A program made the position numbers and the translations under genes. Source: Escherichia coli (GTDB taxonomy: Bacteria > Pseudomonadota > Gammaproteobacteria > Enterobacterales > Enterobacteriaceae). From it: a DNA stretch of 64,000 nt. The DNA is taken from the NCBI RefSeq assembly GCF_003018115.1, contig NZ_CP027457.1, one strand, 5' to 3'. Numbering within the stretch: the first letter of the stretch is position 1; every line of letters starts with the position of its first letter. This document shows positions 14,821-59,823 of the stretch, piece by piece. The notes under the pieces were generated by a model that ran no database searches, had not been told where the DNA came from, and saw only the letters and a program-made list of their open reading frames with translations.

Positions 14821-15585
<765 letters not shown>

Positions 15586-26556: not shown

Positions 26557-26645
26557 ACTGAAGATTTTCCTGATATGAGAGATTAAATTTTGAGGAGAGT
26601 GGTGCTGTAGCGCACCGGGCCGGAGCAGACGATTATTTCGGTGGT

Positions 26646-35800: not shown

Positions 35801-35976
35801 GCCTGTACAACCGTGTCAGCAGCCAGTGCCGGGACTGACGTGACAGCAGCAAGAGACAGCGCAACCGCCACACCAGCGCGTTTTCCCCGTGAGCGGGCCA
35901 GTTCGGAGGCCACCACCAGGGTGCCCGTAATGTGATTCCATACCAGCCTGTAGCTGGTGTTCAGATGTCGTTTCAT
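32857..35976 (-). CDS. flu: antigen 43 self-associating autotransporter adhesin
   Basis: 1039 aa from ATG 35976 (MKRHLNTSYRLVWNHITGTLVVASELARSRGKRAG...), repeat passenger domain, C-terminal beta-barrel ending ...ATLNVTF; track ORF extended 25 codons. Confidence 0.95.
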   Translation of the reverse strand: MKRHLNTSYRLVWNHITGTLVVASELARSRGKRAGVAVALSLAAVTSVPALAADTVVQAGETVNGGTLTNHDNQIVFGTVNGMTISTGLEYGPDNEANTGGQWVQDSGTANKTTVTSGGLQRVNPGGSVSDTVISAGGGQSLQGRAVNTTLNGGEQWMHEGAIATGTVINDKGWQVVKPGTVATDTVVNTGAEGGPDAENGDTGQFVRGDAVRTTINKNGRQIVRTEGTANTTVVYAGGDQTVHGHALDTTLNGGYQYVHNGGTASDTVVNSDGWQIVKNGGVAGNTTVNQKGRLQVDAGGTATNVTLKQGGALVTSTAATVTGINRLGAFSVVEGKADNVVLENGGRLDVLTGHTATNTRVDDGGTLDVRNGGTATTVSMGNGGVLLADSGAAVSGTRSDGKAFRIGGGQADALMLEKGSSFTLNAGDTATDTTVNGGLFTARGGTLAGTTTLNNGAILTLSGKTVNNDTLTIREGDALLQGGSLTGNGRVEKSGSGTLTVSNTTLTQKAVNLNEGTLTLNDSTVTTDVIAQRGTALKLTGSTVLNGAIDPTNVTLASGATWNIPDNATVQSVVDDLSHAGQIHFTSARTGKFVPTTLQVKNLNGQNGTISLRVRPDMAQNNADRLVIDGGRATGKTILNLVNAGNSGTGLATTGKGIQVVEAINGATTEEGAFVQGNMLQAGAFNYTLNRDSDESWYLRSEERYRAEVPLYASMLTQAMDYDRILAGSRSHQTGVNGENNSVRLSIQGGHLGHDNNGGIARGATPESSGSYGFVRLEGDLLRTEVAGMSLTTGVYGAAGHSSVDVKDDDGSRAGTVRDDAGSLGGYMNLAHTSSGLWADIVAQGTRHSMKASSGNNDFRARGWGWLGSLETGLPFSITDNLMLEPRLQYTWQGLSLDDGKDNAGYVKFGHGSAQHVRAGFRLGSHNDMTFGEGTSSRAPLRDSAKHSVRELPVNWWVQPSVIRTFSSRGDMRVGTSTAGSGMTFSPSQNGTSLDLQAGLEARVRENITLGVQAGYAHSINGSSAEGYSSQATLNVTF

Positions 35977-38230: not shown

Positions 38231-38267
38231 ATACTCAAATCTCCCACATTGCAGGAGATTTGAGTAT
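38231..38267. promoter_or_regulatory. perfect 14-bp inverted repeat in the divergent control region
   Basis: atactcaaatctcc (38231-38244) and ggagatttgagtat (38254-38267) separated by 9 bp; right arm contains the recombinase RBS (aggag) and first two bases of its ATG. Confidence 0.5.
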
Positions 38268-38868
38268 GAACACGTCACCGTGGAACAAAGACCGTATCAT
38301 CGCCCAAAAAAGACCACTTCAGATATCTCATATCTGGGAGATCCGAATCCGGCTTGAACTGGAAGGTAAAACGCGCGATTTAGCTCTGTTCAATATGGCC
38401 CAGGACAGTAAGCTTCGAGGCTGTGATCTGGTCAAACTCAAAGTATCGAATGTGGCATATGGTAGCTCGGTTTCAAGCAGAGAAACGGTGTTGCAACAAA
38501 AAACCGGTAACCTTGTGCAATTCGAGATAACCAAAGGGACAAGAGAAGCTGTTGCTGCATTGATAAAGCTTGGCAATTTGCACAGTAAAGACTTCTTGTT
38601 TCGGTCTCGGGTCGGAACTAATCGGCACATATCAACCCAGCAATACAGCCGAATTTTTCATGGGTGGGTAGAAAAGCTTGGTCTCGAAGCTTCGCTGTAC
38701 AGCACACAATCCATGAGAAGAACAAAACCTTACCTAATCTACAAGAAAACCAAGAATCTCCGGATCATCCAACTTCTGTTGGGTCATAAGAAACTGGAAA
38801 GCACGATCCGTTATCTGGGCATTGAAGTCGATGATGCGTTAGAGACCTCTGAATCGATTGAAGTCTAA
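38266..38868 (+). CDS. short (200 aa) tyrosine recombinase, FimB/FimE-like catalytic-domain-only architecture
   Basis: ATG 38266 with AGGAG RBS; Arg-I in SKLRGCDL, C-terminal LLGHKKLESTIRYLG with candidate catalytic Tyr; no N-terminal core-binding domain. Confidence 0.65.
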   Translation: MNTSPWNKDRIIAQKRPLQISHIWEIRIRLELEGKTRDLALFNMAQDSKLRGCDLVKLKVSNVAYGSSVSSRETVLQQKTGNLVQFEITKGTREAVAALIKLGNLHSKDFLFRSRVGTNRHISTQQYSRIFHGWVEKLGLEASLYSTQSMRRTKPYLIYKKTKNLRIIQLLLGHKKLESTIRYLGIEVDDALETSESIEV

Positions 38869-39026: not shown

Positions 39027-40388
39027 ATGACTCGGAGTGAAATAAACGTCTGGGATGAGAGAAGAGGTACCAATAGTCATCGAGTGGAGGAGATTCGATC
39101 TGAAGCTCAGCACGACCTTTCTCGATTGATTCACTCGTCTGCTTTCAGACGATTACAATCCAAAACACAGGTTCTTGGTCTGGGTGAAAGTGATTTCTAC
39201 CGCACACGACTGACTCATTCTATGGAAGTCGCACAAATCGGTTCAGGTCTTCTTGCTAAGTTGAAAATAAAATATAAAGGTAAAGAGCAAGAGCAATTTT
39301 TACCAGATAACGCTCTTATGCAGGCAGTATGTCTCGCACATGATATTGGACATCCTCCATTTGGTCACGGCGGTGAGGTAGCTCTTAACTACTGTATGCA
39401 GGATTACGGTGGTTTTGAAGGAAACGGTCAGACGCTTCGCATTCTCTCGAAACTAGATAAGTATACCTTAGAACACGGACTCGATCCTACACGCAGACTT
39501 CTGCTAGGCATACTGAAATATCCGGTTAAATACTCGGAGCTAGTGGTTACAAAAGACAGAATCCCGGTCACTATCGGATCACCAAACTGGCTCTTTAAGT
39601 CATCTGATTTTAAACCTCCAAAATGCTATCTAGATTCAGAATGCGATGTTGTAAAATTTGCTCTCTCACCATTTACTGAACAGGATCGGAGGCTTTTTAC
39701 TTCCGTTGAAGATGGTCAAACTAAATCCGATCATAAAAAAGCTTCTTATAAAGCTCTCGATACAACTATAATGGATCTTGCCGATGAAATTTCGTATTCG
39801 CTGCACGATTTGGAGGATGCTATTTCTCTCGGAATGGTGACACGAGAAATGTGGATGGAGCATTTCAGTGAACATGAAACCCTATTTACTAACTGCCATG
39901 GAAAAATATTTTCCGAAACATGCCAATCTGTAGCGGATAGCCTTTTTGGTGAAAGTTACAAGAGAAAAGAGTGCATCGGGATGCTGGTTCACCTGATGAT
40001 TACAAGCGTTGAGCTTATTACAAAGAATCCAGCATTCGAATGTGGCATGCTCAAATATAATGCGGTCCTTCCGGAAGCGGTCGAAGCACTACGGTTGAAA
40101 ATTTTCAAACTGGTCAAAAATAAAGTAATTAAGCATGAAAATGTACAGCAGCTTGAATTCAAGGGACAAAAGTTGATTGTTGAGCTCTTCGGTGTGTTGG
40201 CGAACGATCCGTGTCGGTTTCTACCTGCCTCAACGAGGGAAATTTACGAGCGGCAGACTAGCTTAGACAAGAAGGCTGGTATGCGAGTCATTTGCGACTA
40301 TGTTTCAGGGATGACTGATGACTATGCAACAAAGCTTTATGAGAAGATCCTTATTCCACGCAAAGGGTCTATTTTTGACCATCTCTAA
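39027..40388 (+). CDS. dGTPase-family HD-domain triphosphohydrolase (accessory paralog)
   Basis: 453 aa from ATG 39027 (GAGG RBS); motifs RTRLTHSMEVAQIG, LAHDIGHPPFGHGGE, C-terminal CDYVSGMTDDYA; AT-rich, not at the core dgt locus. Confidence 0.8.
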   Translation: MTRSEINVWDERRGTNSHRVEEIRSEAQHDLSRLIHSSAFRRLQSKTQVLGLGESDFYRTRLTHSMEVAQIGSGLLAKLKIKYKGKEQEQFLPDNALMQAVCLAHDIGHPPFGHGGEVALNYCMQDYGGFEGNGQTLRILSKLDKYTLEHGLDPTRRLLLGILKYPVKYSELVVTKDRIPVTIGSPNWLFKSSDFKPPKCYLDSECDVVKFALSPFTEQDRRLFTSVEDGQTKSDHKKASYKALDTTIMDLADEISYSLHDLEDAISLGMVTREMWMEHFSEHETLFTNCHGKIFSETCQSVADSLFGESYKRKECIGMLVHLMITSVELITKNPAFECGMLKYNAVLPEAVEALRLKIFKLVKNKVIKHENVQQLEFKGQKLIVELFGVLANDPCRFLPASTREIYERQTSLDKKAGMRVICDYVSGMTDDYATKLYEKILIPRKGSIFDHL

Positions 40389-41372
40389 CACGGTAAGAAT
40401 GATACTCTGAGTTCAATTGACCTATAAACATTAACCAAGGCATCTACCAGGGGGGATATCAAATCCCCCCATTCTGAATTTGTTCATGCAGAATCGGTGA
40501 ACGTTCTCATCTGAGCGTTAAACGCCAATAATCATTGATCTACACTGATCATTAATACACCTTAATACCATTAGCGTCTTACTCCGTTATGAGAACAAAC
40601 GCGAACTTCCGCTGTTCGCTCAAAGCAGACCATTCGCTCAGTTAACGCATCAGTGTCGTGCTAGAAGTAGAAGTGGTTAACAACAATGTGAGTTAATCAA
40701 CGGAGAGCAGGTCAACTCTAACCTGTATCAAAAAACAAATGTGTCATAAAGATGCCGCATGCCTTAATTTGAGTATAATTGAGACGGAAGTAGACGGTTT
40801 ATGACTAGATATTGTTGATATATAGCTATTTGAAGAGTTGTAGCGCAAGCGCATAGCCCAAACTAATAACGCTACGCCCCTTATCAAAGAGCGGCAACGA
40901 TGCACAGCTCGCACGAGACAATATTCGCACAAGAAATCAGGTTCGGAAATAACCAGCTCTGGCATGGCGGGGAGAGTATCAATGGTCAGGCTTTCGGTAA
41001 GATGCGGCGGGATGAGGTCGGCGTGGGTTACAGCAGTACAAGGTCGCCCACAGAGGGTAAGCCACAGCGTGGAATCCTCGGTTTCTATCAGGGATTCGGC
41101 GAAGCGGGCGCAGTTGTCGACCAAGACGATGAAATCCATTGTGGCATTATAAGGGAACGAACAATAGATCGAGTAAATCGCAGTCAGGGACAAGGATTGT
41201 AGTCATAGAGAAGTCTCCTGTAACGGTTTTCAGGAGGCTAATCCCGACGCCTGATTTCGCAGGCGCGGAAAGAGAGGATACTGCGACCATTAATCCGCCA
41301 CAAGTCATTTACGTACATAAATCGCGCAGTCAGATCCGACTCCCACTGTAGTTCTTGAACTTGATACCACAT

Positions 41373-41389
41373 TTAGCTAATTTAGCTAA
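41373..41389. promoter_or_regulatory. tandem 8-bp palindrome TTAGCTAA x2, operator-like
   Basis: ttagctaa at 41373-41380 and 41382-41389, each self-complementary, about 25 bp upstream of ATG 41415. Confidence 0.4.
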
Positions 41390-41414
41390 ATTATCCAGTA
41401 TACCAGTGGTTGCC

Positions 41415-41699: not shown

Positions 41700-44138
41700 A
41701 TGGCTATCAAAAAAACCGAACTCTATTCTTCCCTGTGGGCAAGCTGCGACGAACTGCGTGGCGGGATGGACGCCAGCCAGTACAAAGACTATGTACTGAC
41801 CCTGCTGTTTATGAAGTACGTTTCCGATAAGTATAAAGGCGATCCTTACGGGATGATCGTGATACCCAAAGGAGCCAGCTTTGACGATATGGTTGCGCTG
41901 AAAAATGACAAAGAGATCGGCGACAAAATCAACAAAATCATCCACAAGCTGGCGGAAGAGAACGGCCTGAAGGGCGTCATCGACGAAGCCGACTTTAACG
42001 ACGAAGATAAGCTCGGCAAAGGCAAGGAAATGATTGACCGCCTGAGCAAGCTTGTCGGTATCTTTGAAGGGTTAGATCTCTCCAGCAACCGGGCCGAAGG
42101 CGACGATCTGTTGGGCGATGCCTATGAATATCTGATGCGTCACTTCGCAACCGAATCCGGCAAGAGTAAAGGGCAGTTTTACACTCCGGCGGAGGTGTCA
42201 CGTATTCTGGCGAAGGTGATTGGTATTACTCCCGATACGCCGCGAGATGCAACGGTTTATGACCCAACCTGTGGCTCTGGTTCGCTGCTGTTGAAAGTGA
42301 ATGATGAAGCCCGGCGCGGACTATCGATTTTCGGCCAGGAGATGGATAACGCTACCAGTGCACTGGCGCGGATGAACATGATTCTGCATAACAATGCCAC
42401 CGCGAAAATCTGGCAGGGTAATACGCTGAGCGATCCGCAGTGGAAAGAGGCGAACGGCAAACTGAAAGCCTTCGATTTTGCCGTGGCGAACCCGCCTTTT
42501 TCCAATAAAAACTGGACCAACGGGTTGACGCCGAAAAAAGATCCGTTTGAACGCTTCGGCTGGGGCATTCCGCCGGAGAAAAACGGCGATTATGCTTTTT
42601 TGCTGCATATCATTAAAAGCCTGAAAAGTACCGGCAAAGGCGCGGTGATCCTGCCCCATGGCGTACTGTTTCGCGGTAACGCCGAGGCAAATATCCGTGA
42701 AAATCTAATCAAGCAGGGCTATATCAAAGGCGTTATTGGTTTGCCGGCCAACCTGTTTTACGGCACCGGCATCCCGGCGTGCATTATTGTGATTGATAAA
42801 GAGCACGCCCACAGCCGCAAAGGCATTTTTATGATCGACGCCAGTCGGGGCTTTATCAAAGATGGCAACAAGAACCGCCTGCGTAGCCGAGATATTCACC
42901 GCATTGTGGACGTGTTCAACCATCAGCGAACGGTGCCGGGCTACAGCCGGATGGTGCCCTCCAGCGAGATCGCCGGAAATGATTACAACCTGAATATTCC
43001 TCGCTATATCGAGAGCGGCGAGCCGGAAGATTTGCACGATCTGACCGCGCACTTACAGGGCGGTATTCCAGCACGCGATGTGGATGCTTTGCAGGATTAC
43101 TGGCGGGTATTCCCTGCCCTGCGCAACGTGCTGTTTGCTGACGACCGTTCCGGTTACTGTCGGGCGCAGGTGAACGCGCAGCAGGTGAAACCAACCATTC
43201 TGGCACATCAGGAGTTTAAGGATTTTGCCACCCGCAGCCTGCTACCGTTTAAAGCGTGGGTGAAAGAGGCAAGTCTGGAAGAGATTCGCAAAGGTGATAA
43301 ACCCAAAGCGCTGATCCACGATATCAGCGAGATGTTGCTTGTGCAGTACGCCAACAGTGAGTTGCTGAACAAGTACAGCGTGTACCAGATCCTGATGGAT
43401 TACTGGGCTGATGTCATGCAGGACGATGTGTATGTGATTATGCAGGATGGCTGGCAAGCCGCCGCGCAAATCCGCGAGCTTCAACCGGTGAAAGGCAAAG
43501 ATGGCAAAAACATCTGGAAAGAAACGCACGATTTCGAGTTTACCAAACAGCGCTACAAGGCCGATGTGCTACCCCGTTCACTAGTGGAAATTCGCTGCTT
43601 CCCGGAACTGCTGGATACGTTGAACCGCGCGCAGGAGCGCAGTGAAGAAGCCAGTCGTCAGCTAGCGGAACTCATCGAGGAGCAGGCAGGGGAAGAGGAT
43701 CTGCTGGCTGAGGCGAAGAACGATAAAGATAAGGTGACGCAAAAGCTGGTGAATGCCCGTCTGGCACAGTTGAAGAAAACCCCTGCCGACCCAGATGAGC
43801 TGGCAGTGCTGAACCGCTGTCTGGCGCTGATTAAGGCCGAGGCCAGTGCGAAAAAAGCGCTGAAAGCCGCACAGGAAGCGTTGGATCGAGCGGTATTTAA
43901 ACATTATCCCACGCTGGATGAAACAGCGATTAAAACGCTGGTAGTGCAGGATAAGTGGCTGGCAACGTTGCAGGCAGGAATCAAGGCGGAGATTGAGCGT
44001 ATTACCCAGCAACTGGCGTCGCGCGTAAAGGAGCTGGAAGAGCGTTATGCTGAACCGTTGCCAGCGCTTGAAGCCTCCGTTGAGGCGTTGAGCGAGAAAG
44101 TGGCCGGGCATTTGCGGGCGATGGGGCTGGAGTGGTGA
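41700..44138 (+). CDS. hsdM: type I restriction-modification N6-adenine DNA methyltransferase subunit, long form
   Basis: 812 aa; HsdM N-terminal domain, SAM motif DPTCGSGSLL, catalytic NPPF (VANPPFS); about 300-aa C-terminal coiled-coil-like extension. Confidence 0.9.
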   Translation: MAIKKTELYSSLWASCDELRGGMDASQYKDYVLTLLFMKYVSDKYKGDPYGMIVIPKGASFDDMVALKNDKEIGDKINKIIHKLAEENGLKGVIDEADFNDEDKLGKGKEMIDRLSKLVGIFEGLDLSSNRAEGDDLLGDAYEYLMRHFATESGKSKGQFYTPAEVSRILAKVIGITPDTPRDATVYDPTCGSGSLLLKVNDEARRGLSIFGQEMDNATSALARMNMILHNNATAKIWQGNTLSDPQWKEANGKLKAFDFAVANPPFSNKNWTNGLTPKKDPFERFGWGIPPEKNGDYAFLLHIIKSLKSTGKGAVILPHGVLFRGNAEANIRENLIKQGYIKGVIGLPANLFYGTGIPACIIVIDKEHAHSRKGIFMIDASRGFIKDGNKNRLRSRDIHRIVDVFNHQRTVPGYSRMVPSSEIAGNDYNLNIPRYIESGEPEDLHDLTAHLQGGIPARDVDALQDYWRVFPALRNVLFADDRSGYCRAQVNAQQVKPTILAHQEFKDFATRSLLPFKAWVKEASLEEIRKGDKPKALIHDISEMLLVQYANSELLNKYSVYQILMDYWADVMQDDVYVIMQDGWQAAAQIRELQPVKGKDGKNIWKETHDFEFTKQRYKADVLPRSLVEIRCFPELLDTLNRAQERSEEASRQLAELIEEQAGEEDLLAEAKNDKDKVTQKLVNARLAQLKKTPADPDELAVLNRCLALIKAEASAKKALKAAQEALDRAVFKHYPTLDETAIKTLVVQDKWLATLQAGIKAEIERITQQLASRVKELEERYAEPLPALEASVEALSEKVAGHLRAMGLEW

Positions 44139-45445
44139 TGGTGGATTTAATGGTGAATGAGCAACGATCAGGTACGGCGGGGAAAGATGTGCCTGCGGGG
44201 TATAAGCTGACTGAGGTGGGGGTGATTCCTGAGGATTGGGTAGTAATCTCTATTGATGACTGTACAACCAAAGTTGGTAGTGGAAAAACACCAACTGGTG
44301 GAGCATCTGTTTATATTGATAGCGGACGCCCTTTTGTCCGTAGCCAAAATGTTGATTGGGGAAGATTAGATCTCGCCGATGTCGTACATATTACAGATGA
44401 AACCCATAACACATTCTCTGGTTCTGAAATTCAGCAAGATGATGTTTTACTCAACATAACGGGAGCATCTATCGGCCGATGCGCTAAAGCTGATTTTAGG
44501 GTTATAGGTGGTAATGTTAACCAACATGTTTGCATCATCAGAACAGAGGCAAAAAAACTCTCCCCATCCTTACTGGTTGAATTAATCAATTCAAATTATG
44601 GACAAAACCAGATTGATAGTTATCAAGCCGGAGGAAACAGAGAAGGACTGAATTTTTCTCAAGTTAAAAATCTTAAGTTTGCTATTACACCAAACTCCCT
44701 TGAACAAACGGAAATTGTCAGAACATTAAATGATATTAATGCATTCACTCTCGCTCTGGAAAACTTAATTGCTAAAAAACAGGCCATAAAAGCCGCTGCT
44801 ATGCAACAACTACTCACCGGTAAAACCCGTTTGCCGCAGTTTGCGTTGCGCAAAGATGGATCTGCTAAGAGATATAAAAAGAGCAAGTTGGGGGAGACTC
44901 CAGAAGATTGGGCAGTTAATAATATTGGAGATTTATTCTCCATTACCGCAGGAGGAGATTTAAGACAGTCTGAATTCTCTAATATTCAATCTGAAAAACA
45001 TCTTTACCCTATTTATTCCAATGCAATTAGTCATTATGGTTTATATGGCTATTGCCAGAGTTATGATTATGTTGGTGACTATCTAACAATCACTGCGAGG
45101 GGAGGAATCGGCCATGCCGTGGCAAGAAAAGGAAGATTCTGTGCAATTGGACGATTATTAGTTCTTAGTCCAAAAGGAGATTCAAACGTAAAATTTTATG
45201 AAGGGTATATAAACCAATACTTATCATTTGCAAATGAGAGCACTGGAGTCCCTCAACTTACAGCTCCTCAAGTTGCAAAATATCCGGTTGTTTCCCCATG
45301 CATTGAAGAACAAACCGCCATCGCCACCATCCTCTCCGATATGGACAAGGAAATTCAGACCCTGCAACAACGTCTGGACAAAACCCGTCAGCTTAAACAG
45401 GGGATGATGCAGGAGCTGTTAACCGGGAAAACACGCTTAATATAA
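44132..45445 (+). CDS. hsdS: type I R-M specificity subunit
   Basis: 437 aa from GTG overlapping hsdM stop by 7 nt; two target-recognition domains separated by conserved repeats (LLTGKTRL twice). Confidence 0.9.
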
Positions 45446-45456
45446 AAGGGAAACCT

Positions 45457-46103
45457 ATGACTACAGCGCCAGCCTCAATCCGCAAAAAGCCCTGATCTGG
45501 CGTATCGTCCATCGGGACAATATCCCGTGGATTCTGGACAATGGTCTGCACTGCGGCAACAGCCCGGTGCAGGCTGCTAACTGGATCAATATCGGCAACC
45601 CGGAGCTTATCGGCAAGCACGCCGGACATCCGGTACCTGTCGGGACGGGCGGGACACTGCGTGACTATGTGCCATTTTATTTTACCCCCTTCTCGCCAAT
45701 GCTGATGAACATCCACAGCGGACGTGGCGGCATTAAGCAACGCCCCAATGAAGAGATCGTTATTCTGGTCAGCAGCCTGCGGCACGTGGCAGCACACGAC
45801 GTGCCCTTCGTGTTTACCGACAGCCATGCTTACTATAACTGGACCAACTACTACACCAGTCTGGATAGTCTGGACCAGATCGACTGGCCCATTTTGCAGG
45901 CACGGGACTTTCGCCGCGATCCAGACGATCCGGCTAAATTTGAACGCTATCAGGCAGAGGCGCTAATCTGGCAACACTGCCCGATCTCGCTGCTGGATGG
46001 GATAATTTGTTACAGCGAAGAGGTCAGGTTACAATTAGAACAATGGTTGTTTCAGCGTAATCTAACAATGTCCGTTCACACACGGGCTGGATTGGTACTT
46101 CTC
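45457..46103 (+). pseudogene. darT: DarT-like (DUF4433) ssDNA ADP-ribosyltransferase, N-terminus disrupted by frameshift
   Basis: ATG 45457 with AAGGG RBS reads [12 protein letters not shown] then stop; one extra A in the A5 run 45484-45488 would give [34 protein letters not shown]... continuous with track ORF 45567; candidate catalytic Glu in [10 protein letters not shown]. Confidence 0.6.
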
Positions 46104-47171
46104 ATGATCACATATACACAAGGCAATTTACTGGACGCACCGGTGGAAGCTCTGGTGAATACGGTTAATACCGTCGGTGTCATGGGGAAAGGCATCGCGT
46201 TGATGTTTAAAGAGCGCTTCCACGAAAATATGAAAGCCTATGCCCTCGCCTGCAAACAAAAGCAGGTGATCACCGGCAAAATGTTCATTACCGAAACCGG
46301 GGAACTGATGGGACCGCGCTGGATTGTTAATTTTCCGACCAAACAGCACTGGCGCGCTGACTCCCGCATGGGGTGGATTGAAGATGGCTTACAAGACTTA
46401 CGTCGATTTTTGATTGAAGAGAACGTGCAATCCATCGCCATTCCACCGCTGGGCGCAGGCAACGGTGACTTGAACTGGCCGGACGTTCGGGCGCAGATTG
46501 AATCTGCCCTTGGCGACCTTCAGGACGTTGATATCCTGATTTACCAACCAACTGAAAAATACCAGAACGTTGCCAAAAGCACTGGCGTAAAAAAGCTCAC
46601 TCCCGCCAGAGCCGCCATCGCTGAACTGGTGCGTCGCTACTGGGTATTGGGGATGGAGTGCAGCCTACTGGAAATCCAGAAACTGGCCTGGCTGTTACAA
46701 CGCGCCCTTAAGCAGCATCAACAGGACGATATCCTCAAACTGCGGTTTGAAGCTCACTATTATGGCCCCTATGCGCCCAATCTGAACCATCTGCTTAATG
46801 CGCTGGACGGCACCTATCTTAAAGCCGAGAAACGCATCCCGGACAGCCAACCGCTGGATGTGATCTGGTTTAACGATCAGAAAAAAGAACACGTTAATGC
46901 GTATCTGAACAGCGAAGCCAGAGAGTGGCTACCGGCGCTGGAGCAGGTCAGCCAGTTAATTGACGGCTTTGAATCGCCGTTTGGTCTGGAGCTGCTGGCA
47001 ACCGTAGACTGGTTGCTGAGCCGTGGCGAATGTCAACCAACACTGGATTCCGTTAAGGAAGGGCTGCACCAGTGGCCTGCGGGCGAACACTGGGCCAGCC
47101 GTAAGTTGAGGCTGTTTGATAATAATAATCTGCAATTTGCCATTAACCGCGTAATGGAGTTCCATTGCTGA
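46104..47171 (+). CDS. darG: DarG-like macrodomain antitoxin
   Basis: Starts [39 protein letters not shown] with [10 protein letters not shown] macrodomain motifs plus a C-terminal domain; in this sequence in frame with the DarT-like region, no intervening stop. Confidence 0.7.
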
Positions 47172-50100: not shown

Positions 50101-50285
50101 GCCACGACGAGGTACTGGCGACCCGCATAGATACGACGATTCGCTATACCAAAAGGGCAGAGTGGATTGGCGATCGTTTTAAAGAACGGGAAATTGCCAA
50201 CGCATTACGTGAAGAGACCGCCAGCTATAATATTGATATTGATGAGGTGATAGCGCTTGCCCGTCAGCAGAAGGAATATCACTGA
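47190..50285 (+). CDS. hsdR: type I R-M restriction endonuclease/translocase subunit
   Basis: 1031 aa from TTG 47190 with AAGGAG RBS; PD-(D/E)xK region then SF2 helicase motifs (TQGSGKS, DECHRTQ). Confidence 0.9.
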   Translation: MSTVGQRERATQQRLIQFFVEDLGYRHLSHRTGYTGNSNIDTNILSAWLKRRGVNDTLITRALRQLDSAAALGEGKKLYYANKEVYRLLRYGVKDKEGAGEQNQTVWLIDWANPQANDFAIADEVTVKGEYCKRPDLVLYVNGIALGVIELKRSSVHVSEGIRQNLDNQKKTFIRDFFTTMQLVMAGNDTQGLRYGTIETPEKYYLEWKEDNPGDYTHKLDFHLSRLCSKSRLLDIVHNYIAFDVGVKKLCRHNQFFGVEAAKQHIARREGGIIWHTQGSGKSLTMVWLAKWIRENVPNSRVLIVTDRTELDEQIESVFMGVNEDIYRTSSGNDLIATLNHPNPWLICSLVHKFGRRSEAEDNAATDAFITELQQSLTKTFRAKGDLFVFVDECHRTQSGKLHNAMTAILPDALFIGFTGTPLMKKDKKKSVEVFGPYIHTYKFDEAVADGVVLDLRYEARDIDQYLTSEKKVDDWFEAKTRGLSNLARTQLKQKWGSMQKLLSSKSRLEQIVNDILLDMDTRPRLMDGRGNAMLVCSSIYQACKVYEMFSQTELAGKVAIVTSYRPDAASIKGEETGEGLTEKLSKHATYRKMLADYFEQSEEKAAARITEFEREVKQRFIEEPGQMRLLIVVDKLLTGFDAPSATYLYIDKTMTDHTLFQAICRVNRLDGEDKEYGYIIDYKDLFRSLDKAITDYTTGAFDDYDRDDVAGLLKDRLEQAQLDLDSALEMVRSLCEPVKTPRSLQDYQHYFCGESGENQTSLNEKEALRLTFYQCVARLLRAYASIANEMPEAGYTAEEVESIRAEVAEFEKLRYEIKLTSGDLLDMKRFEPAMRHLLDMYVRADDSEVLMDFEELSLIELIVEKGLAATVALPDDIRNNQDAMAETIENNVRKTIVDENPVNPKYYGRMSQLLDELITLRRQNALNYQQYLERIRDLCKQVIRPEQTAGACYPATMDTQAKRAFYDNFGHDEVLATRIDTTIRYTKRAEWIGDRFKEREIANALREETASYNIDIDEVIALARQQKEYH

Positions 50286-51001
50286 TGCCAATCATGCAAA
50301 TAGGCTCGTTACACTTGCTGGTCAACCGTAAGGCGATTAAGAATCTGCATATCAGCGTGCTGCCGCCTGATGGCAAAGTCCGCGTTTCAGCGCCGGAACA
50401 TATGACGGAGACGGCGATTCGTATGGCGGTTGCTTCACGCTTTCGCTGGATCAGAAAACAGCAGCAGGATTTCGCCAGACAGCCTCGTCAATCAGAGAGG
50501 GAAATGGTCAGCGGAGAGTGCCACTATCTTTGGGGCCGAAGATATCGCCTACTTGTGATTGAGCGTCACGGGCGTCACGAAGTAAAAGTTGCGGGAAATA
50601 ATAAGCTCCAGCTTTATGTTCAACCGGGAACCCGTGATGAAAATAAGGCATTGGCGTTAAGTGAATTTTATCGACATGAACTAAAACAGCAGGTGGCTAA
50701 GCTTCTACCTGAATGGCAGGACCGAATCGGTGTTCCCCTAACATTCTGGGGCATCAAAAAGATGAAAACCTTTTGGGGCACCTGTAACACTACAACAAAA
50801 CGAATCTGGCTCAATCTGGAGCTAATTAAGAAGCCGCCGGAGTGTCTGGAGTATATTCTGGTGCATGAACTGGTTCATCTTCTGGAACGTCACCATAATG
50901 CTCGCTTCCGGTTGCATATGGATCGGTTTATTCCTGACTGGCGTGAGCGTCGGGATTTGTTAAATAATATGCCGTTAGCGTTTGAGGCATGGGAGTATTG
51001 A
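50285..51001 (+). CDS. YgjP-like (DUF45/M48-type) zinc metallopeptidase
   Basis: 238 aa; HExxH in HELVHLLERHH; ATG overlaps hsdR stop (TGATG). Confidence 0.75.
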   Translation: MPIMQIGSLHLLVNRKAIKNLHISVLPPDGKVRVSAPEHMTETAIRMAVASRFRWIRKQQQDFARQPRQSEREMVSGECHYLWGRRYRLLVIERHGRHEVKVAGNNKLQLYVQPGTRDENKALALSEFYRHELKQQVAKLLPEWQDRIGVPLTFWGIKKMKTFWGTCNTTTKRIWLNLELIKKPPECLEYILVHELVHLLERHHNARFRLHMDRFIPDWRERRDLLNNMPLAFEAWEY

Positions 51002-51452: not shown

Positions 51453-51878
51453 ATGGAACAGAAAATATTATCCTCAGAACCCCGCAGATCATTTTCAAAT
51501 GAGTTTAAACTTCAAATGGTTAAACTGGCTTCACAACCAGGAGCCTCTGTTGCCCGTATTGCCCGGGAACACGATATCAATGATAACCTCCTGTTCAAAT
51601 GGCTCAGGCTCTGGCAGAACGAAGGGCGTATATCGCGGCGTCTTCCGGTAACAATCTCTTCTGGCGCTGGCGTTGAATTATTACCTGTTGAGATAACGCC
51701 TGATGAGCAGAAAGAGCCTATGGCGGCTCTTACTCCGCTTTTATCCACTCCTTCACAAAGCACAGTCAGTGCCAGTTCCTGTAAAGTTGAGTTCCGCCAC
51801 GGTAACATGACGCTGGAAAATCCTTCACCAGAGCTGCTCACGGTGTTGATCCGTGAACTGACCGGGAGGGGACGATGA
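51453..51878 (+). CDS. IS66 accessory protein TnpA (orf1)
   Basis: 141 aa (MEQKILSSEPRRSFSNEFKLQMVKLA...). Confidence 0.8.
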   Translation: MEQKILSSEPRRSFSNEFKLQMVKLASQPGASVARIAREHDINDNLLFKWLRLWQNEGRISRRLPVTISSGAGVELLPVEITPDEQKEPMAALTPLLSTPSQSTVSASSCKVEFRHGNMTLENPSPELLTVLIRELTGRGR

Positions 51879-52225
51879 TCTCGCTCCCATCAGGTACCCG
51901 TATCTGGCTCGTTGCCGGCGTTACCGATATGCGTAAATCCTTCAACGGACTGGGAGAACAGGTACAACATGTGCTGAATGATAATCCCTTCTCCGGTCAC
52001 CTGTTTATCTTCCGTGGCCGACGGGGTGACACCGTCAAAATTCTTTGGGCTGATGCTGATGGTCTGTGCCTGTTCACCAAACGCCTGGAGGAAGGCCAGT
52101 TTATCTGGCCTGCGGTACGTGACGGCAAGGTATCCATTACCCGCTCGCAACTGGCAATGCTCCTCGATAAGCTGGACTGGCGTCAGCCAAAAACATCCAG
52201 CCGTAACTCACTGACAATGTTGTAA
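51875..52225 (+). CDS. IS66 accessory protein TnpB (orf2)
   Basis: 116 aa, ATGA overlap with tnpA. Confidence 0.85.
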   Translation: MISLPSGTRIWLVAGVTDMRKSFNGLGEQVQHVLNDNPFSGHLFIFRGRRGDTVKILWADADGLCLFTKRLEEGQFIWPAVRDGKVSITRSQLAMLLDKLDWRQPKTSSRNSLTML

Positions 52226-52255
52226 AAAACTCCTGACCGCATTATAAAAACGGTC

Positions 52256-53869
52256 ATGAGTCAGAAATACCTCATTCGCATCGCAGAGCTGGAAAGATTG
52301 CTCTCTGAGCAGGCTGAAGCCCTCCGTCAGAAAGACCAGCAACTGAGTCTGGTTGAAGAGACGGAAGCCTTCCTGCGCTCTGCACTGACACGTGCCGAAG
52401 AAAAGATCGAAGAAGATGAACGGGAAATAGAACATCTGCGGGCTCAGATAGAAAAACTGCGCCGGATGCTGTTCGGTACCCGTTCTGAAAAACTGCGTCG
52501 TGAAGTTGAACTGGCTGAGGCTCTGCTGAAACAACGTGAACAGGACAGCGATCGTTACAGTGGGCGGGAAGACGATCCTCAGGTTCCCCGCCAGTTGCGA
52601 CAGTCGCGCCATCGTCGTCCGTTACCGGCACACCTTCCCCGTGAAATACACCGCCTGGAGCCAGAAGAAAGCTGTTGCCCGGAGTGTGGCGGTGAACTGG
52701 ATTATCTGGGGGAAGTCAGCGCTGAACAGCTGGAACTGGTGAGCAGTGCCCTGAAAGTGATCCGCACAGAACGGGTAAAAAAAGCCTGTACAAAATGTGA
52801 CTGTATTGTTGAAGCACCGGCGCCGTCCCGCCCGATAGAGCGTGGTATCGCGGGCCCCGGATTACTTGCCCGCGTGTTAACGGGAAAATACTGCGAACAT
52901 CTGCCACTGTATCGTCAGAGTGAAATCTTTGCCCGCCAGGGTGTCGAACTGAGCCGGGCCTTACTCTCCAACTGGGTTGACGCGTGCTGCCAGTTAATGA
53001 CACCGGTGAATGATACCCTGTACCGTTATGTAATGAACACCCGCAAGGTTCACACTGATGACACACCGGTAAAGGTACTGGCACCGGGTCAGAAAAAGGC
53101 GAAAACAGGGCGTATCTGGACGTATGTCCGGGATGATCGCAATGTGGGTTCGTCATCTCCTCCAGCGGTCTGGTTCGCGTACTCGCCGAACCGGCAGGGG
53201 AAACACCCGGAGCAACACCTCCGCCCCTTCCGGGGTATCCTGCAGGCGGATGCGTTCACAGGTTACGACAGGTTGTTCAGTGCAGAACGTGAAGGTGGTG
53301 CACTGACAGAAGTTGCGTGCTGGGCCCATGCCCGGCGAAAAATCCACGATGTATACATCAGCAGCAAAAGTGCGACGGCAGAAGAAGCCCTGAAGCGAAT
53401 CAGTGAACTGTACGCCATCGAGGATGAAATACGGGGATTACCGGAGTCAGAGCGTCTTGCCGTCAGGCAGCAGCGAAGCAAAGTGTTACTGACGTCGCTG
53501 CATGAATGGATGGTGGAGAAGAATGGTACGCTGTCGAAAAAATCCAGACTGGGCGAAGCGTTCAGCTATGTACTGAATCAGTGGGATGCCCTCTGTTATT
53601 ACAGTGATGACGGTCTGGCGGAGGCGGATAATAATGCTGCGGAAAGAGCGCTTCGTGCAGTCTGTCTCGGAAAGAAAAACTTTATGTTCTTTGGCAGCGA
53701 TCACGGCGGCGAGCGTGGAGCACTGTTGTACGGGCTGATCGGCACCTGCCGTCTGAACGGTATCGATCCGGAAGCGTATCTGCGCCATATCCTGAGCGTA
53801 CTGCCGGAATGGCCTTCCAACCGAGTTGATGAACTCCTGCCATGGAACGTAGTACTCACCAATAAATAA
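52256..53869 (+). CDS. IS66-family transposase TnpC
   Basis: 537 aa with N-terminal coiled coil, CxxC zinc motif (CPECGG) and DDE core. Confidence 0.9.
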   Translation: MSQKYLIRIAELERLLSEQAEALRQKDQQLSLVEETEAFLRSALTRAEEKIEEDEREIEHLRAQIEKLRRMLFGTRSEKLRREVELAEALLKQREQDSDRYSGREDDPQVPRQLRQSRHRRPLPAHLPREIHRLEPEESCCPECGGELDYLGEVSAEQLELVSSALKVIRTERVKKACTKCDCIVEAPAPSRPIERGIAGPGLLARVLTGKYCEHLPLYRQSEIFARQGVELSRALLSNWVDACCQLMTPVNDTLYRYVMNTRKVHTDDTPVKVLAPGQKKAKTGRIWTYVRDDRNVGSSSPPAVWFAYSPNRQGKHPEQHLRPFRGILQADAFTGYDRLFSAEREGGALTEVACWAHARRKIHDVYISSKSATAEEALKRISELYAIEDEIRGLPESERLAVRQQRSKVLLTSLHEWMVEKNGTLSKKSRLGEAFSYVLNQWDALCYYSDDGLAEADNNAAERALRAVCLGKKNFMFFGSDHGGERGALLYGLIGTCRLNGIDPEAYLRHILSVLPEWPSNRVDELLPWNVVLTNK

Positions 53870-53909
53870 GCGTCAATACGGTGCTCCGTTGACGCTTACA
53901 GCTTTCCCA

Positions 53910-54284
53910 CTATTTCTTGATTCCTAAACGGAACATATCAGTTGGGAATAAAGGTTGTATTATCACTTCATCATTAAAAATGAATAATTTGGGCGATAAA
54001 GCTGTTACGTCATAGATATTTTCAGCGATTAATCTTAGATTTGACCTAAAAACTGGAATACTTGCATCATCTGCAAAGACAAACATGTCATCGTTTTTTA
54101 CAGAGTTTGCACACAATAGCTCATCAAAACTCTCATAATCAGAATGCCAGATCTCTGACCAAGTAACACTTCCTTTCGCGAGAGGGTACTTATTTAAAAT
54201 GCCCAGAGCCTCCTGCTGAGCCAGCCCCTCTACTATATTAAAATCAGCACTCAGTGCTTCCCGACACTCATCAAATAAAGTCAT
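53910..54284 (-). CDS. putative immunity protein of orphan toxin module
   Basis: 124 aa acidic protein immediately downstream of the orphan CdiA-CT. Confidence 0.5.
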   Translation of the reverse strand: MTLFDECREALSADFNIVEGLAQQEALGILNKYPLAKGSVTWSEIWHSDYESFDELLCANSVKNDDMFVFADDASIPVFRSNLRLIAENIYDVTALSPKLFIFNDEVIIQPLFPTDMFRLGIKK

Positions 54285-54289
54285 TTGCT

Positions 54290-55700
54290 CTACCTGTTTA
54301 GCTGTTTCAATATTGTTTCAAAAGACTTTTCATTGCCTTCAAAAGGTATGACTTGCTTCACCGCTTTTCCAGGGCCTTTACCCTGCGAGTAATCCCATAT
54401 ATTGATGTGTGTGCCTTTTTCAGGATCATAATCAACACGCCAACCAACTTTTCCGTCGCTGGATTGCCGCCCTATGACTTTCCCATTACCAGCGCTGACT
54501 TCCAAACGTCCGATAACTGGCTTAGAGTCCGCTCCTAAATTACCTACAAGATCCAATGCCTTGTTTCGAGCAGTTTCCCAGTTTTTCTCTGGCTTGAGGA
54601 TTTGTTCAATTTTAGGCTGGGAATTCCCTTTAACCTTACTAATTCCCCCAAATGCTGACGCCGCAGCGCTCGCGACTATTCCCGCCTGAACTTCATCCAA
54701 ACCGTATTCTTCTTGGAGTGCTTCCGAGACTTTGTTGGTCGCGACAACCCCTTCAGCCTGCATTTGCTGCGCAAAAGTCGCCGTCAGATCGTAGACCATT
54801 TTGATCGGGATATCTTCACCCAGAGCACGATCTATTGCCTGCTTCACCGCCAGACTGTCAGTCAGTACATCACCGTATTTCTGCTGGCAGGTTGCCGGGC
54901 TGGCTGCACAGTCACTGATCAGTTGCTTTTGCTGTGCCGTACTCAACTCTTCGTACTTTTTGATAATACCGCCGCAGTCACCGCCTTTCGCCTGACAGGA
55001 CTTCATTTCAGCGGACCAAGCATCTATCTGCTTACTGCTCAGATAGTTATTCTCAACAGCATTCTTCCCGCTTTGTGCTCCCACTGCTGCTGATGCGGTG
55101 CTGTTTCCGGTAAGACCTCCGGCCAGCCCTGCTGACACGGTTGCCAGCGTACTTATCGTTTGCTTCTGCTCTTCACTGAGGTCTGACTGTTTCACGCCCG
55201 GATACAGCATGCCGGCAATCGCTCTGACTGCCAGCTCTCCCGTTGCTGCGCCTGCTGCACCGGCAGCAACATTATTACCCTGCATTGCCGCCACTGCGCC
55301 GCCCAAAATGGCGTGAGCAATGGCGTTTACTGCCGGGTCTTTTTCTGTTGATTTCAGCAGGTGCGCCAGTTCCGGAGCCGAAGTTCCGGCCAGAGCACCC
55401 GCTAAATTACCCCCCGCCAGCCCCTGAAGCGCGGCCTGGATACCCCGCTGAATTTCACTGCCGGTACCATACTTCGCCATTTCATCCCTGTAAGCCTGCG
55501 TGTCACGCAGTTTTGCCAGATATGCCTGCCGCTGCTCTTCCGTCGCATCCGCCGGAACAGGCCCATATTTATCCTGCGCAGCCTTCAACGCATTCAGTTC
55601 CCCCTGCGTCCGCGCAATATCAGCCACCTGACTGCCTATGTCACTGATAAGCCCCACTGTCTGCAGACGCTGCTGCTCTTTTTCCTTGTCAAAGATGGAA
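54290..55700 (-). other. orphan cdiA-CT fragment (pre-VENN region plus toxin domain), no start codon of its own
   Basis: VENN motif ([13 protein letters not shown]) about 200 aa into track ORF 54290-55657; frame open to about 55736; upstream part homologous to cdiA pre-VENN sequence. Confidence 0.65.
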
Positions 55701-55742
55701 AAGCAAAAAAACCAGCCAACTGAACTAGCTGGTAGTTAAAGT

Positions 55743-56006
55743 CTATTTGATTTTGCTTAAAATATTATTGACTATCGGTATTACAGAACTAACCAATTGC
55801 TCTTCCTCAACTGTATACAAAAGCAATTCGATCTCATTCTCCGCATTAAATAACATTGTATGGAGCCACTTTTCCTCAACAGCAACAATTTGGCTTTCCG
55901 CAGCATAAATTTCTGATTGAATACTTTGTACCGTTATTTTCCCTTCAAGAAAGTTTTTACAAGAGTGTTGTAACCTCTCGATCACCTCAGGATAAATCCA
56001 ACTCAT
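55743..56006 (-). CDS. putative immunity protein
   Basis: 87 aa; ATGA overlap with upstream toxin-like ORF. Confidence 0.45.
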   Translation of the reverse strand: MSWIYPEVIERLQHSCKNFLEGKITVQSIQSEIYAAESQIVAVEEKWLHTMLFNAENEIELLLYTVEEEQLVSSVIPIVNNILSKIK

Positions 56007-56719
56007 TGCCCACTCCTGCGAAGAATAGTAACAATAATATTACTGTTATTTTCAGTGACTACACCTACGTCACCACTCCAATAAGTCGTTCTAGTTACGC
56101 CATTAACGACACTATTTTGAGGAGTTCCTTCTTTGATAACACTTTCAACCATATTCGGCGTTATATTTCTCCCTGGGCCAACTGTGCCGGCTGGAGAACC
56201 AGATGGCTGCATTCTATCAACAGCATGTTGTGAATACAAACGATGACCTATTTGTGCATATTGTCGCCCATCTACTGTAACCTTTCGATAATTTTGCCAA
56301 GAGTCCCAAGGTAACTTTTCAGAACTATTAGGTACGTTTTCTGATGAGGTTTTCTCATTACGTTGCTCTATTGATTCATTATTCCTGGCGTTCTCCTCAT
56401 CCTGCGGCTCCCATCCCCCCGGTGTTCCAGCACCTGCGCCACCAAGCTCAGCTTTCTCCTTGTCCGTAGCGCTCGCTACGTCTTTGCCCAGATTCGGCTG
56501 TTTGTTTTCGTCTGTATTGTCGCCATTCAGCACATACCCCGGCCCCCGGGCACCATCGCGACTCGGATCACGTACAGCACACTGTTCCCGTGAGCCTTCA
56601 CAACCACCACCGGTATCCCAGCTATTATCATTCCCGGTATCCTTACTGGCATTACCTGTAGCACCAGCTATTGCTGCTGCCGTATTAGCTGCTGTTTCAG
56701 TGGCTATCACGTTCAGCAT
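56003..56719 (-). CDS. putative orphan polymorphic-toxin C-terminal module (no VENN recognised)
   Basis: 238 aa; low-complexity N-terminal half and compact C-terminal domain (VDGRQYAQIGHRLYSQHAVDRM...). Confidence 0.4.
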   Translation of the reverse strand: MLNVIATETAANTAAAIAGATGNASKDTGNDNSWDTGGGCEGSREQCAVRDPSRDGARGPGYVLNGDNTDENKQPNLGKDVASATDKEKAELGGAGAGTPGGWEPQDEENARNNESIEQRNEKTSSENVPNSSEKLPWDSWQNYRKVTVDGRQYAQIGHRLYSQHAVDRMQPSGSPAGTVGPGRNITPNMVESVIKEGTPQNSVVNGVTRTTYWSGDVGVVTENNSNIIVTILRRSGQ

Positions 56720-56736
56720 ATTGTTTTCAGCAACAA

Positions 56737-56955
56737 CTATTTACGATAGTATCTTCGCATTTGTAGATAGAGTTGTAACCAAATCCCAGCACCTCCCCAT
56801 AAGCCAACTACTGCGCCAATTATTCCGTATTTTACATACACCTCAGAAGGTATTGGTTCCCGAGCTATAAGCCAGATACTAACCACTATTCCAATAGAGC
56901 AAGTAGCTATAGATATAAGTAACAACTTAATAAGAAGTAGTAGATGTTTTTTCAT
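56737..56955 (-). CDS. small inner-membrane immunity protein
   Basis: 72 aa, two hydrophobic helices; start overlaps upstream toxin stop. Confidence 0.55.
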   Translation of the reverse strand: MKKHLLLLIKLLLISIATCSIGIVVSIWLIAREPIPSEVYVKYGIIGAVVGLWGGAGIWLQLYLQMRRYYRK

Positions 56956-57870
56956 TTTTTGTCTCCATCAACTTCTTTTTGCGTTGCGCTGCTTGCACCT
57001 TCTGATACGAATGAACCAACAAATCCACCAAATGTTCCTGGTATAGAGCTCATTTGGCCGCCTTGATACATACCGTATCCGATAGACTTTTCCGAATATT
57101 GCAGTGAATATTTACTGGCGTCCATTCCCAGTTGATTTTTGATGTATTGAGCTTCTAACTTATTAGTAATTGAAGCCCCAATGTTATAGCCAAGGCCTGT
57201 ACCAGCCATGCTACCCACTACTGATGCGGTACTGTCCTGGCCTTCAATCTGGCTGCTCATGTAAGCGCTACCGGCACCCAACAACTGATTAGCGTAATAT
57301 CCTTTCCCGGCTGTACCTACACCAGTCAAGCCTGACATCATGAAACTGAGATAATCGAACTTATCACCGATATTTCCCGTACCAATTTGTACCGCACCAT
57401 TAGCCCCATAGCTCAGCCCGGCACTGACAAATTTTTCAGTCAGCGTGGCTGATGATGTTAACAATGAACCCGCTCCGGCAACCGTACCCCAGTAATTTTC
57501 CGGTTCCCCGAAGAAAGCCAGAGCCTTATCACCTTTCGATGTGTTGTTGTTCAGATAGTTCAGGTCATAGCTGTTACTTTCAGTGACGTAGTTCTTCACG
57601 TCCTGGTTTTCCAGCGAACCATACAACCAGCCAGGCCGACCTGCCGCGCTGAGTCCGCCCTCAATATTCCATTTATCTTCCCCGGACAGAGCCGTCAGAG
57701 GATCTGTGGCCACATCAATGTGTAATTTCTGTCGGTGCTCTGCGCTTATTACAGCATATTTATTCTGAATATCGCCGCAGTCTCCACCCACTTTACGACA
57801 GGCCGTCATTTCTCTGTCAAAAGCATGCGCCTCGTCGTAGCTGAGGTAGTTATTCTCAACAACAACTCTT
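56952..57870 (-). other. orphan cdiA-CT, glycine-zipper membrane toxin (EC93-type ionophore-like)
   Basis: Frame upstream of track ORF 56952-57809 reads ...SERVVVENNYLSYDEAHAFDREMTACRK... (VENN at about 57850); C-terminal domain rich in GxxxG motifs. Confidence 0.6.
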
Positions 57871-57960
57871 TCCGACGTAAGTTGCTGCGATGAACCCTAT
57901 TTTCTCCTTGCCTTTCCGTGAATTACAACCGTTTTCCCCTGCTGTACTTCCTGCCTGCCA
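57840..57960. repeat. repeated linker (VENN-encoding segment plus upstream about 90 bp), copy A
   Basis: Near-identical to 59207-59325 (…gagttattctcaacaacaactctttccgac[g/a]taagttgctgcgatgaaccc…). Confidence 0.5.
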
Positions 57961-58173
57961 ACTTTTTGCCCCGACGCGCCTTTTTCGTCTGAACACGCTA
58001 CCGCCCCGGTGAAAAGTCCACCGAGTAAATAGCCTGCGGCTATTTAACATAACGCGCGGGAATTATGCGCAGTTCAGGAGGCCGAACCACGCATAATCAG
58101 CGTTATGTCTTGCGCCCTTCAGAAGCCTGCGATAGTGCAGGCTGACAGTCAGGAGACCCAGACGGTTAAGATA

Positions 58174-58467
58174 TTAACTGTCGGGCTCTCCTTTTTTATT
58201 ATTTTTATAATCAATCATCAAGTTATTCACCTCATTCCATAGTTGCTCATCGTTAAATTCGTATTCTTCACGATCATTATCTGGGTTGTACATATCAGCC
58301 ACACAGAAGACACTGGATAATAATTCACTTAGATTATCATTATCTTGCTTAAGTAGGTTACTATCACGCTCACCCTTCCACTTCGCCATATAAGTGTCGG
58401 TAAAATATTCAGCCGATATATTCTTAGCAAGAAAATCATCAATGTATTTTTTAAGAGACTGACTCAT
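58174..58467 (-). CDS. putative immunity protein
   Basis: 97 aa acidic protein; start overlaps upstream orphan toxin stop. Confidence 0.5.
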   Translation of the reverse strand: MSQSLKKYIDDFLAKNISAEYFTDTYMAKWKGERDSNLLKQDNDNLSELLSSVFCVADMYNPDNDREEYEFNDEQLWNEVNNLMIDYKNNKKGEPDS

Positions 58468-59237: not shown

Positions 59238-59325
59238 AAGTTGCTGCGATGAACCCGGATTCTCCCTGCATTTTCCGTTAGTTACAGCCGATTTTCCCTG
59301 TTGTACTTCCTGCCCGCCAACTTTT
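59207..59325. repeat. repeated linker, copy B
   Basis: See copy A at 57840-57960. Confidence 0.5.
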
Positions 59326-59438
59326 TGTGCTGTTAAGCGTTTCTGGCCCCGCAGACGCTACCGCCCCGCCGTGACGCGCCACCATCATATAAGCAAACTA
59401 CAGCACCACTTAGGATGGTGGTGTCTTGGATTTATATT

Positions 59439-59822: not shown

Positions 59823-59823
59823 T

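Follow-up and report, generated by a model that had tools for sequence, protein, structure and literature searches.

DarTG modules are frequently inserted in type I R-M operons according to the original DarTG paper (PMC5179494), and a later review also mentions such insertions (PMC8883491). In the canonical DarTG2 systems of Thermus aquaticus and M. tuberculosis, DarT (PF14487) is followed by the macrodomain protein DarG (Jankevicius et al. 2016, PMC5179494). The closest described counterpart of the locus studied here is the RptR-RMS-DarTG2-M48 (RRDM) defence island of EPEC E2348/69 (Zhang et al. 2025, PMC12255303; for its DarTG, Lawaree et al. 2020, PMC7003065), for which phage defence has been shown and which is driven from a single RptR-repressed promoter (PMC12255303). 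Both the embedding of DarTG in type I R-M operons and its co-regulation with them are already known (PMC5179494, PMC12255303).

We analysed a window of 64,000 nucleotides from Escherichia coli (assembly GCF_003018115.1, contig NZ_CP027457.1), which contains an island that shares its seven-gene order and its promoter/operator motifs with that of EPEC E2348/69 (Table 1). The two loci share 96.8 % nucleotide identity over darTG, an identical M48 protein, DarT E170, DarG K80 and the ATGA context of darG. They differ in that darT of the window lacks its start codon, owing to a 7-bp deletion, and its stop register, owing to the insertion of a single T. They also carry different hsdS specificity alleles (WP_000228012.1 in the window, WP_000228010.1 in EPEC). 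Compared with canonical DarTG2, the order of toxin and antitoxin genes is likewise DarT then DarG, but here the toxin gene is a pseudogene and the module an orphan antitoxin rather than a working TA pair. We consider it very likely that the locus is an RRDM allele whose DarT2 toxin gene was put out of action by two indels that are both real and inherited.

Table 1. Features of the RRDM-type island, in positions of the 64,000-nucleotide window
Feature	Position	Strand	Basis or remark
RRDM promoter/operator	41355..41392	+	Sequence read; elements match the EPEC description in PMC12255303
rptR, HTH-like repressor, WP_024175231.1	41421..41660	+	RefSeq annotation of identical record; name RptR from PMC12255303
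hsdM, type I R-M methyltransferase subunit, intact, 812 aa	41700..44138	+	PADLOC MTase_I full length; TIGR00497, 282 bits
hsdS, specificity subunit, intact	44138..45445	+	RefSeq annotation of identical record; PADLOC Specificity_I, 1.6e-103
Remaining single copy CCTATGA of 7-bp tandem repeat CCTATGG/CCTATGA	45454..45460	+	Alignments to intact alleles
Out-of-frame 12-codon remnant ORF	45457..45495	+	Begins at the ATG left by the deletion, downstream of the unchanged darT RBS
darT pseudogene, DarT2 frame without start codon	45459..46107	+	Open frame; NF048013, 246 bits; RefSeq 'frameshifted'
A5 run, wild type, no lesion	45484..45488	+	Identical in all five aligned alleles, four with intact darT
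Catalytic Glu codon GAG, E170 in EPEC numbering, kept	45957..45959	+	Within YQAEALIW
+1 T insertion, GGATGG to GGATTGG	46092..46093	+	Alignment to EPEC and strain 1303; seven-locus scripted comparison
darG, intact, 355 aa, WP_024175232.1	46104..47171	+	N-terminal macrodomain with catalytic K80 and C-terminal DarT-binding domain
DarG codon 122, GAC (Asp), Gly in relatives	46467..46469	+	Loop; G in 117/118 relatives and in 5M31 and 5M3I
hsdR, restriction subunit, intact, 1031 aa	47190..50285	+	TIGR00348, 546 bits; PADLOC; annotation
M48-family metallopeptidase, last RRDM gene	50285..51001	+	Protein identical to EPEC WP_001122107.1

Gene order and DarTG domains of the island

A 1,851-nt region of the window was 100 % identical to E. 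coli 2014C-4135 (NZ_CP027310.1), and the other E. coli genomes listed, including EPEC E2348/69, showed 96.7–96.9 % nucleotide identity to it. In NZ_CP027310.1, RefSeq annotates an HTH-like gene, hsdM and hsdS upstream of darT/darG, and hsdR and an M48 peptidase gene downstream. The same record gives darG as a separate CDS (equivalent to window positions 46104–47171) and darT as a 'frameshifted' pseudogene (45492–46107), such that the pseudogene had already been flagged. Comparison of this annotation with EPEC yielded the order rptR-hsdM-hsdS-darT-darG-hsdR-M48 with a TAGCTA operator upstream. The promoter/operator comprises a -35 element, TTGAAC, at 41355 and overlapping -10-like AGCTAA boxes, with two RptR-site TAGCTA palindromes at 41374–41379 and 41383–41388. 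On this gene order and operator, the locus is identified as an allele of the published EPEC RRDM island.

The preliminary description of this DNA had placed a DarT/DarG-like module inside a type I R-M operon, with hsdS on one side and hsdR on the other, and coordinates and annotation agree with that placement. The hsdS stop codon TAA occupies 45443–45445, with an ATG (45457) lying 11 nt 3′ of it and preceded by AAGGG, whilst 18 nt separate the darG stop from the hsdR start (TTG 47190). The genes rptR, hsdM, hsdS, hsdR and darG and the M48 gene are all intact. A consensus scan for promoters or terminators within the operon, by which darTG could be uncoupled from the R-M genes, gave matches at chance level and nothing notable.

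Translation of the three forward frames revealed a frame that is free of stops from 45459 to a TGA at 47169–47171, within which the ORF list contains a 534-aa ORF starting at GTG 45567. The conceptual translation of 45459–46103 matched the NCBIfam toxin_DarT profile NF048013 with 246 bits (E 2e-73; cutoff 150 bits), and that of 46104–47168 matched antitoxin_DarG NF048014 over residues 2–349 with 443 bits (E 5e-133; cutoff 250 bits). Pfam returned DarT PF14487 (1e-48), Macro PF01661 (1.5e-18) and a weak SocA_Panacea match in the C-terminal part of DarG, and PADLOC called both DarT and DarG. The identification as DarT/DarG, made earlier without database searches, was thus upheld by all three resources, with the suggested search against DUF4433 and macrodomain profiles significant for both. 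Both domain halves are real, far beyond chance. The DarT catalytic Glu (E170 in EPEC, E160 in Taq) is present, and E170A has been described as a catalytically dead mutant (PMC7003065). In DarG, residues 1–152 align to 5M31/5M3I and residues 183–351 to 7YK3_B, so that the macrodomain, the catalytic Lys and the C-terminal DarT-binding domain are all represented, with the caveat of a G122D substitution at a near-invariant Gly.

The two indels in darT

Alignment with intact alleles placed exactly two indels in darT, a loss of 7 bp at the start and a gain of one T at 46092/93. In EPEC, the start reads GGGAAA-CCTATGG-CCTATGA-CTAC, with darT beginning at the first ATG, and the window has one 7-bp unit fewer; a scripted comparison of seven loci set the gap after 45453. 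The deletion took the true darT ATG and left a second, out-of-frame ATG (45457), from which a 12-codon frame runs to a TGA at 45493–45495. The wild-type N-terminus MAYDYS... is seen in the intact alleles of TW14588, O157:H7 and WCHEC020031. Past the upstream stop, the first canonical start in the darT frame of the window is GTG 45567 (residue 40), which has no Shine-Dalgarno sequence, and the wild-type end of the frame, TGA 46105–46107, is out of register through the T insertion. In the window, darT consequently has neither a start nor a stop of its own and is not a translatable ORF.

A broken darT start had been recognized in the preliminary description, which attributed it to the A5 run at 45484–45488, where one extra A would restore the frame, and considered either that darT is inactivated or that this tract is a homopolymer error or slippage site. 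The start is indeed broken, and inactivation of darT is the correct one of these alternatives, but the site is a different one. The sequence CGCAAAAAGCC is identical in the intact, annotated darT of EPEC E2348/69, TW14588, O157:H7 F7508 and WCHEC020031, so that five A residues are the wild-type state and the tract is neither a homopolymer error nor a slippage site. An extra A restores the frame arithmetically, yet because A5 is wild type the 'missing A' was not the actual event, and the true lesion is the 7-bp deletion. Repair to A6 was rejected on the same grounds, A5 being found in all intact alleles aligned.

At the other end of the gene, the intact 657-nt darT of EPEC closes with CGG TCT GGA TGG TAC TTC TCA TGA (SGWYFS*), its TGA overlapping the darG ATG as ATGA. 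The window reads CGG GCT GGA TTG GTA CTT CTC ATG ATC. The inserted T sits 12 nt 5′ of the darG ATG and shifts the last six darT codons, changing the C-terminus from ...SGWYFS* to ...AGLVLL with the frame continuing into darG. This +1 T carries the darT frame past the TGA within the ATGA overlap, which by itself accounts entirely for the in-frame junction. The junction near 46104 is therefore without a stop in this sequence, as had been described, but it does not represent a single-chain design: the alignment of homologues proposed for this site showed that intact alleles have a TGA there, which the insertion bypasses.

Occurrence and age of the lesions

Both lesions were found together in five of 5,426 complete E. 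coli genomes, namely 2014C-4135 (USA), 1303 (Germany), STEC2017-197 (Switzerland), C311 (Hong Kong) and CFIAFB20180511 (Canada), and these five loci differ from the window by single substitutions. The count for the start lesion was obtained with a junction-specific 85-mer, which identified exactly five complete genomes. The T insertion likewise occurred in five records and no others, and the remaining 244 matching records were one base shorter; every one inspected among these 244 had separate, overlapping darT and darG genes. A food-metagenome contig with this darT allele also carries the 7-bp deletion. In STEC2017-197, another 226 bp of darT (window 45552–45777), not a multiple of three, are missing, and the remainder is annotated in RefSeq as a frameshifted DarT-family pseudogene. 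Searches for an intact copy of this darT allele with an exact 34-mer returned one match among metagenome contigs, namely the 7-bp-deleted contig just mentioned, and zero among species-representative genomes, and plasmids yielded only alleles of about 95 % identity. Neither an intact progenitor nor a single-lesion intermediate was found in the complete genomes, metagenome contigs, representatives or plasmids. The shared lesions, with the further loss in STEC2017-197 and the second-position substitutions given below, point to a single inactivation in the past, after which the gene has gone on decaying.

Within the lineage, darT displayed only two substitutions (45832 and 45934), each affecting the second position of its codon. 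The dN/dS of the window against EPEC was 0.14 for darT and 0.17 for darG. Since these two values are similar, most of the 3 % divergence arose whilst darT was functional, and darT was thus under purifying selection until recently, its inactivation being comparatively recent. An ancient pseudogene was rejected as an explanation, given that the darT value shows no long-term relaxed constraint.

Separately, DarG of the window displays eight substitutions relative to WP_000634203.1, the protein common to EPEC, O157:H7, TW14588 and WCHEC020031. Three of them fall at conserved macrodomain positions: G122D, P40H (P in 105 of 118 relatives) and E90G (E in 90 of 118). The catalytic K80, invariant among relatives, is kept. 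A weakened DarG glycohydrolase may have preceded the loss of darT, selecting for it, or may have followed it.

Competing readings and their consequences

Apparent frameshifts of this kind invite the suspicion of a sequencing or assembly error, with an ordinary, intact two-gene darTG in the true genome. Single-base indels are common in long-read assemblies and the inserted T creates a TT dinucleotide, but the start lesion is the deletion of a 7-bp repeat unit rather than a homopolymer miscount, the A5 run being wild type. As the lesions are identical in five assemblies from different laboratories in five countries, and the 7-bp deletion recurs in an independent metagenome contig, they are not sequencing errors, and we regard an artefact as extremely improbable. 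A reversible toxin switch, in which the 7-bp repeat over the darT start would mediate phase variation and this strain would be in the OFF state, is suggested by the perfect two-copy repeat over the ATG in EPEC-type alleles and by the deletion of exactly one unit. Once a single copy is left, however, slippage cannot restore the second, and the majority allele carries an imperfect repeat. Known contingency loci also have far more repeat units than two copies of a 7-mer. Every OFF genome shares the second lesion and the allele, which points to a single historical event rather than to recurrent switching, and makes phase variation very unlikely.

The possibility of a single-chain DarT–DarG, raised in the preliminary description, fared no better. 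When the 534-aa ORF was searched against a collection of 5.8 billion proteins, 119 of the best 120 relatives were stand-alone DarG proteins of about 355 aa, and no conserved fused DarT–DarG was found among these 120. The sole fused entry, a 497-aa singleton from a 2-kb contig in which the DarT C-terminus is scrambled before MITYTQ, looks like another frameshift. The full frame of the window has no start codon or RBS upstream of GTG 45567. A precedent for the architecture is PDB 7OMU, which we take to be the Thermosipho africanus DarTG fusion reportedly described by Schuller and colleagues in 2021. This natural single chain has a weak DarT-like match at residues 21–206 (E 0.079) and a DarG-like macrodomain at residues 229–391 (E 2e-17). 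The 7OMU chain is encoded by a genuine ORF that has a start of its own and lacks the DarG C-terminal domain, whereas the continuous frame of the window is the frameshift product of a start-less gene. A text search of a literature collection for natural DarT–macrodomain fusions found no paper, and the evidence used for them was the 7OMU sequence; because single chains of this type exist, a real fusion at this locus would add no new architecture. Recoding might still generate a functional fusion, if ribosomes started at ATG 45457, slipped by -1 on A_AAG (45486–45489) and read through the junction to give a low-abundance, self-neutralized product. Such a slip from the ATG frame does land in the darT frame, which is stop-free with E170 kept, and among tetramers A_AA.G is the one most liable to shift in E. 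coli (PMC4066793). Tetramers without a stimulator nevertheless shift at approximately 0.15 % against a background of 0.11 % in E. coli, barely above it (PMC4066793). No slippery heptamer was present near A_AAG. Frameshift stimulators usually lie 5–9 nt from the motif, and the only hairpin found downstream of A_AAG was 17 nt 3′ of it, with a fold that was not significant (z = -1.9). Moreover, the motif belongs to ordinary wild-type darT coding sequence, the stretch being identical to wild type except for one base (45479, 5 nt upstream of the run), and a fusion would exchange the conserved C-terminal ...GWYFS for ...GLVLL. The 226-bp loss from darT in STEC2017-197, downstream of the motif, shows that there is no selection to keep darT. 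Nothing in these comparisons supports a functional single-chain DarT–DarG, and its production by recoding is highly doubtful. It seems just as improbable that rare -1 slippage at A_AAG, or internal initiation, yields trace amounts of a covalent, self-neutralized DarT–DarG acting in cis inside the type I R-M operon, with the two indels a step toward a single-chain architecture and not simple decay.

Inactivation of the toxin gene by two inherited indels thus remains the favoured reading, and a plausible course of events can be outlined. Slippage between two perfect 7-bp direct repeats (CCTATGG/CCTATGA) would have deleted the unit bearing the darT ATG. Ribosomes recruited at the unchanged AAGGG Shine-Dalgarno sequence would then start at the out-of-frame second ATG and stop after 12 codons. 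With the single T ahead of darG making the darT frame continuous with darG, the 534-aa 'fusion' ORF is an artefact of pseudogene decay. The whole operon would still be transcribed from the RptR-controlled promoter, and its predicted products are the type I R-M enzymes, M48 and DarG, the last translated from its own ATG at 46104 without translational coupling to darT. Rho-dependent polarity over the approximately 600 nt of untranslated darT, and lowered DarG expression, are possible consequences. The island would still restrict DNA, whilst DarT-mediated abortive infection would be lost and DarG would remain as an orphan antitoxin. As the darT frame is stop-free and its catalytic Glu is kept, a low-level DarT-containing product arising by frameshifting at A_AAG or by internal initiation is formally conceivable.

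The apparent fusion is in itself an ordinary finding that matters little beyond annotation hygiene. It illustrates that a long 'fusion' ORF over a toxin–antitoxin pair can arise from two small indels, and that an obvious frame-restoring edit, here an extra A, may differ from the real lesion. It also provides a natural example of toxin loss with the antitoxin kept, in approximately 2 % of the E. coli genomes bearing the RRDM island. Members of the lineage, among them the mastitis isolate 1303, should depend on the type I R-M arm alone, and could serve as natural darT-null controls for RRDM studies.

Repeat structure at the darT start codon

A perfect 7-bp tandem repeat (CCTATGG-CCTATGA) was found to span the darT start codon only in the EPEC-type allele group, which comprised 11 genomes with ≥99 % identity over the start region together with the ancestors of the five lesion-bearing genomes. 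The majority darT allele (~233 records) carried an imperfect repeat, CACATGG-CTTATGA, and an hsdS–darT spacer of 12 nt versus 11 nt in the EPEC-type group. The perfect repeat resembles a local hotspot for deletions.

Only one fused DarT and macrodomain protein, P0010, occurred among the 120 best relatives; it was a 497-aa singleton originating from a Logan contig of 2,089 bp. Its aberrant DarT C-terminus (…RPTSKAFNWISTACHNGIFKRLT-MITYTQ…) is suggestive of a frameshift or assembly error that arose independently, in a different organism, at this same overlap of darT and darG.

Toxin decay and the state of DarG

The sister strain E. coli STEC2017-197 displayed both darT lesions of the window plus an additional 226-bp deletion within darT, and its darG was intact, indicating that decay of the toxin gene is ongoing. 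The DarG encoded in the window retained the catalytic K80 and carried three substitutions at conserved positions, G122D, P40H and E90G. Of 118 relatives, 117 had glycine at position 122, as did the solved structures 5M31 and 5M3I. These substitutions may have produced a weakened antitoxin enzyme; such weakening, if it occurred, may be either a consequence or a cause of darT loss. The window also contained a core macrodomain gene, ymdB, which bears no relation to the role of DarG, and two more frameshifted pseudogenes were annotated by RefSeq.

Features of the darT region and its surroundings (window positions unless stated)
Feature	Position	Strand	Remark
darT start-codon repeat region	45454-45460		EPEC locus L002:6052-6065; O157:H7 locus L010:2524-2538
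226-bp darT deletion, STEC2017-197	45552-45777 (equivalent)
DarG codon 40	46221-46223		P40H; conserved position
DarG codon 90	46371-46373		E90G; conserved position
DarG codon 122	46467-46469		G122D; near-invariant macrodomain loop
ymdB	14194-14727		O-acetyl-ADP-ribose deacetylase
ymdA	14822-15132		frameshifted pseudogene (RefSeq)
DUF4942	23130-23971		frameshifted pseudogene (RefSeq)
yeeU/cbtA TA	26179-27014		CP4-like block
Ag43	32857-35976		CP4-like block
Short tyrosine recombinase	38266-38868	+	closely 5' of RRDM island
'Anti-phage deoxyguanosine triphosphatase'	39027-40388	+	closely 5' of RRDM island
Three tandem IS66-family elements	51453-59193		one with frameshifted transposase
Orphan CDI toxin fragment and immunity gene	59234-61020
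Colicin-D-domain/immunity pair	end of window

A mosaic island around the RRDM genes

All sequence from the tRNA-Ser adjoining ghrA (22893-22980) to ~64000 constituted a mosaic genomic island, of which the RRDM island was one component and a CP4-like block (antirestriction, radC, yeeU/cbtA and Ag43) another. The IS66-family elements, the orphan CDI toxin fragment with its immunity gene and the colicin-D-domain/immunity pair also belonged to this mosaic. EPEC carried other genes upstream of the RRDM island in place of the deoxyguanosine triphosphatase and tyrosine recombinase; with these two genes beside it, the RRDM island forms part of a composite defence island in the window.
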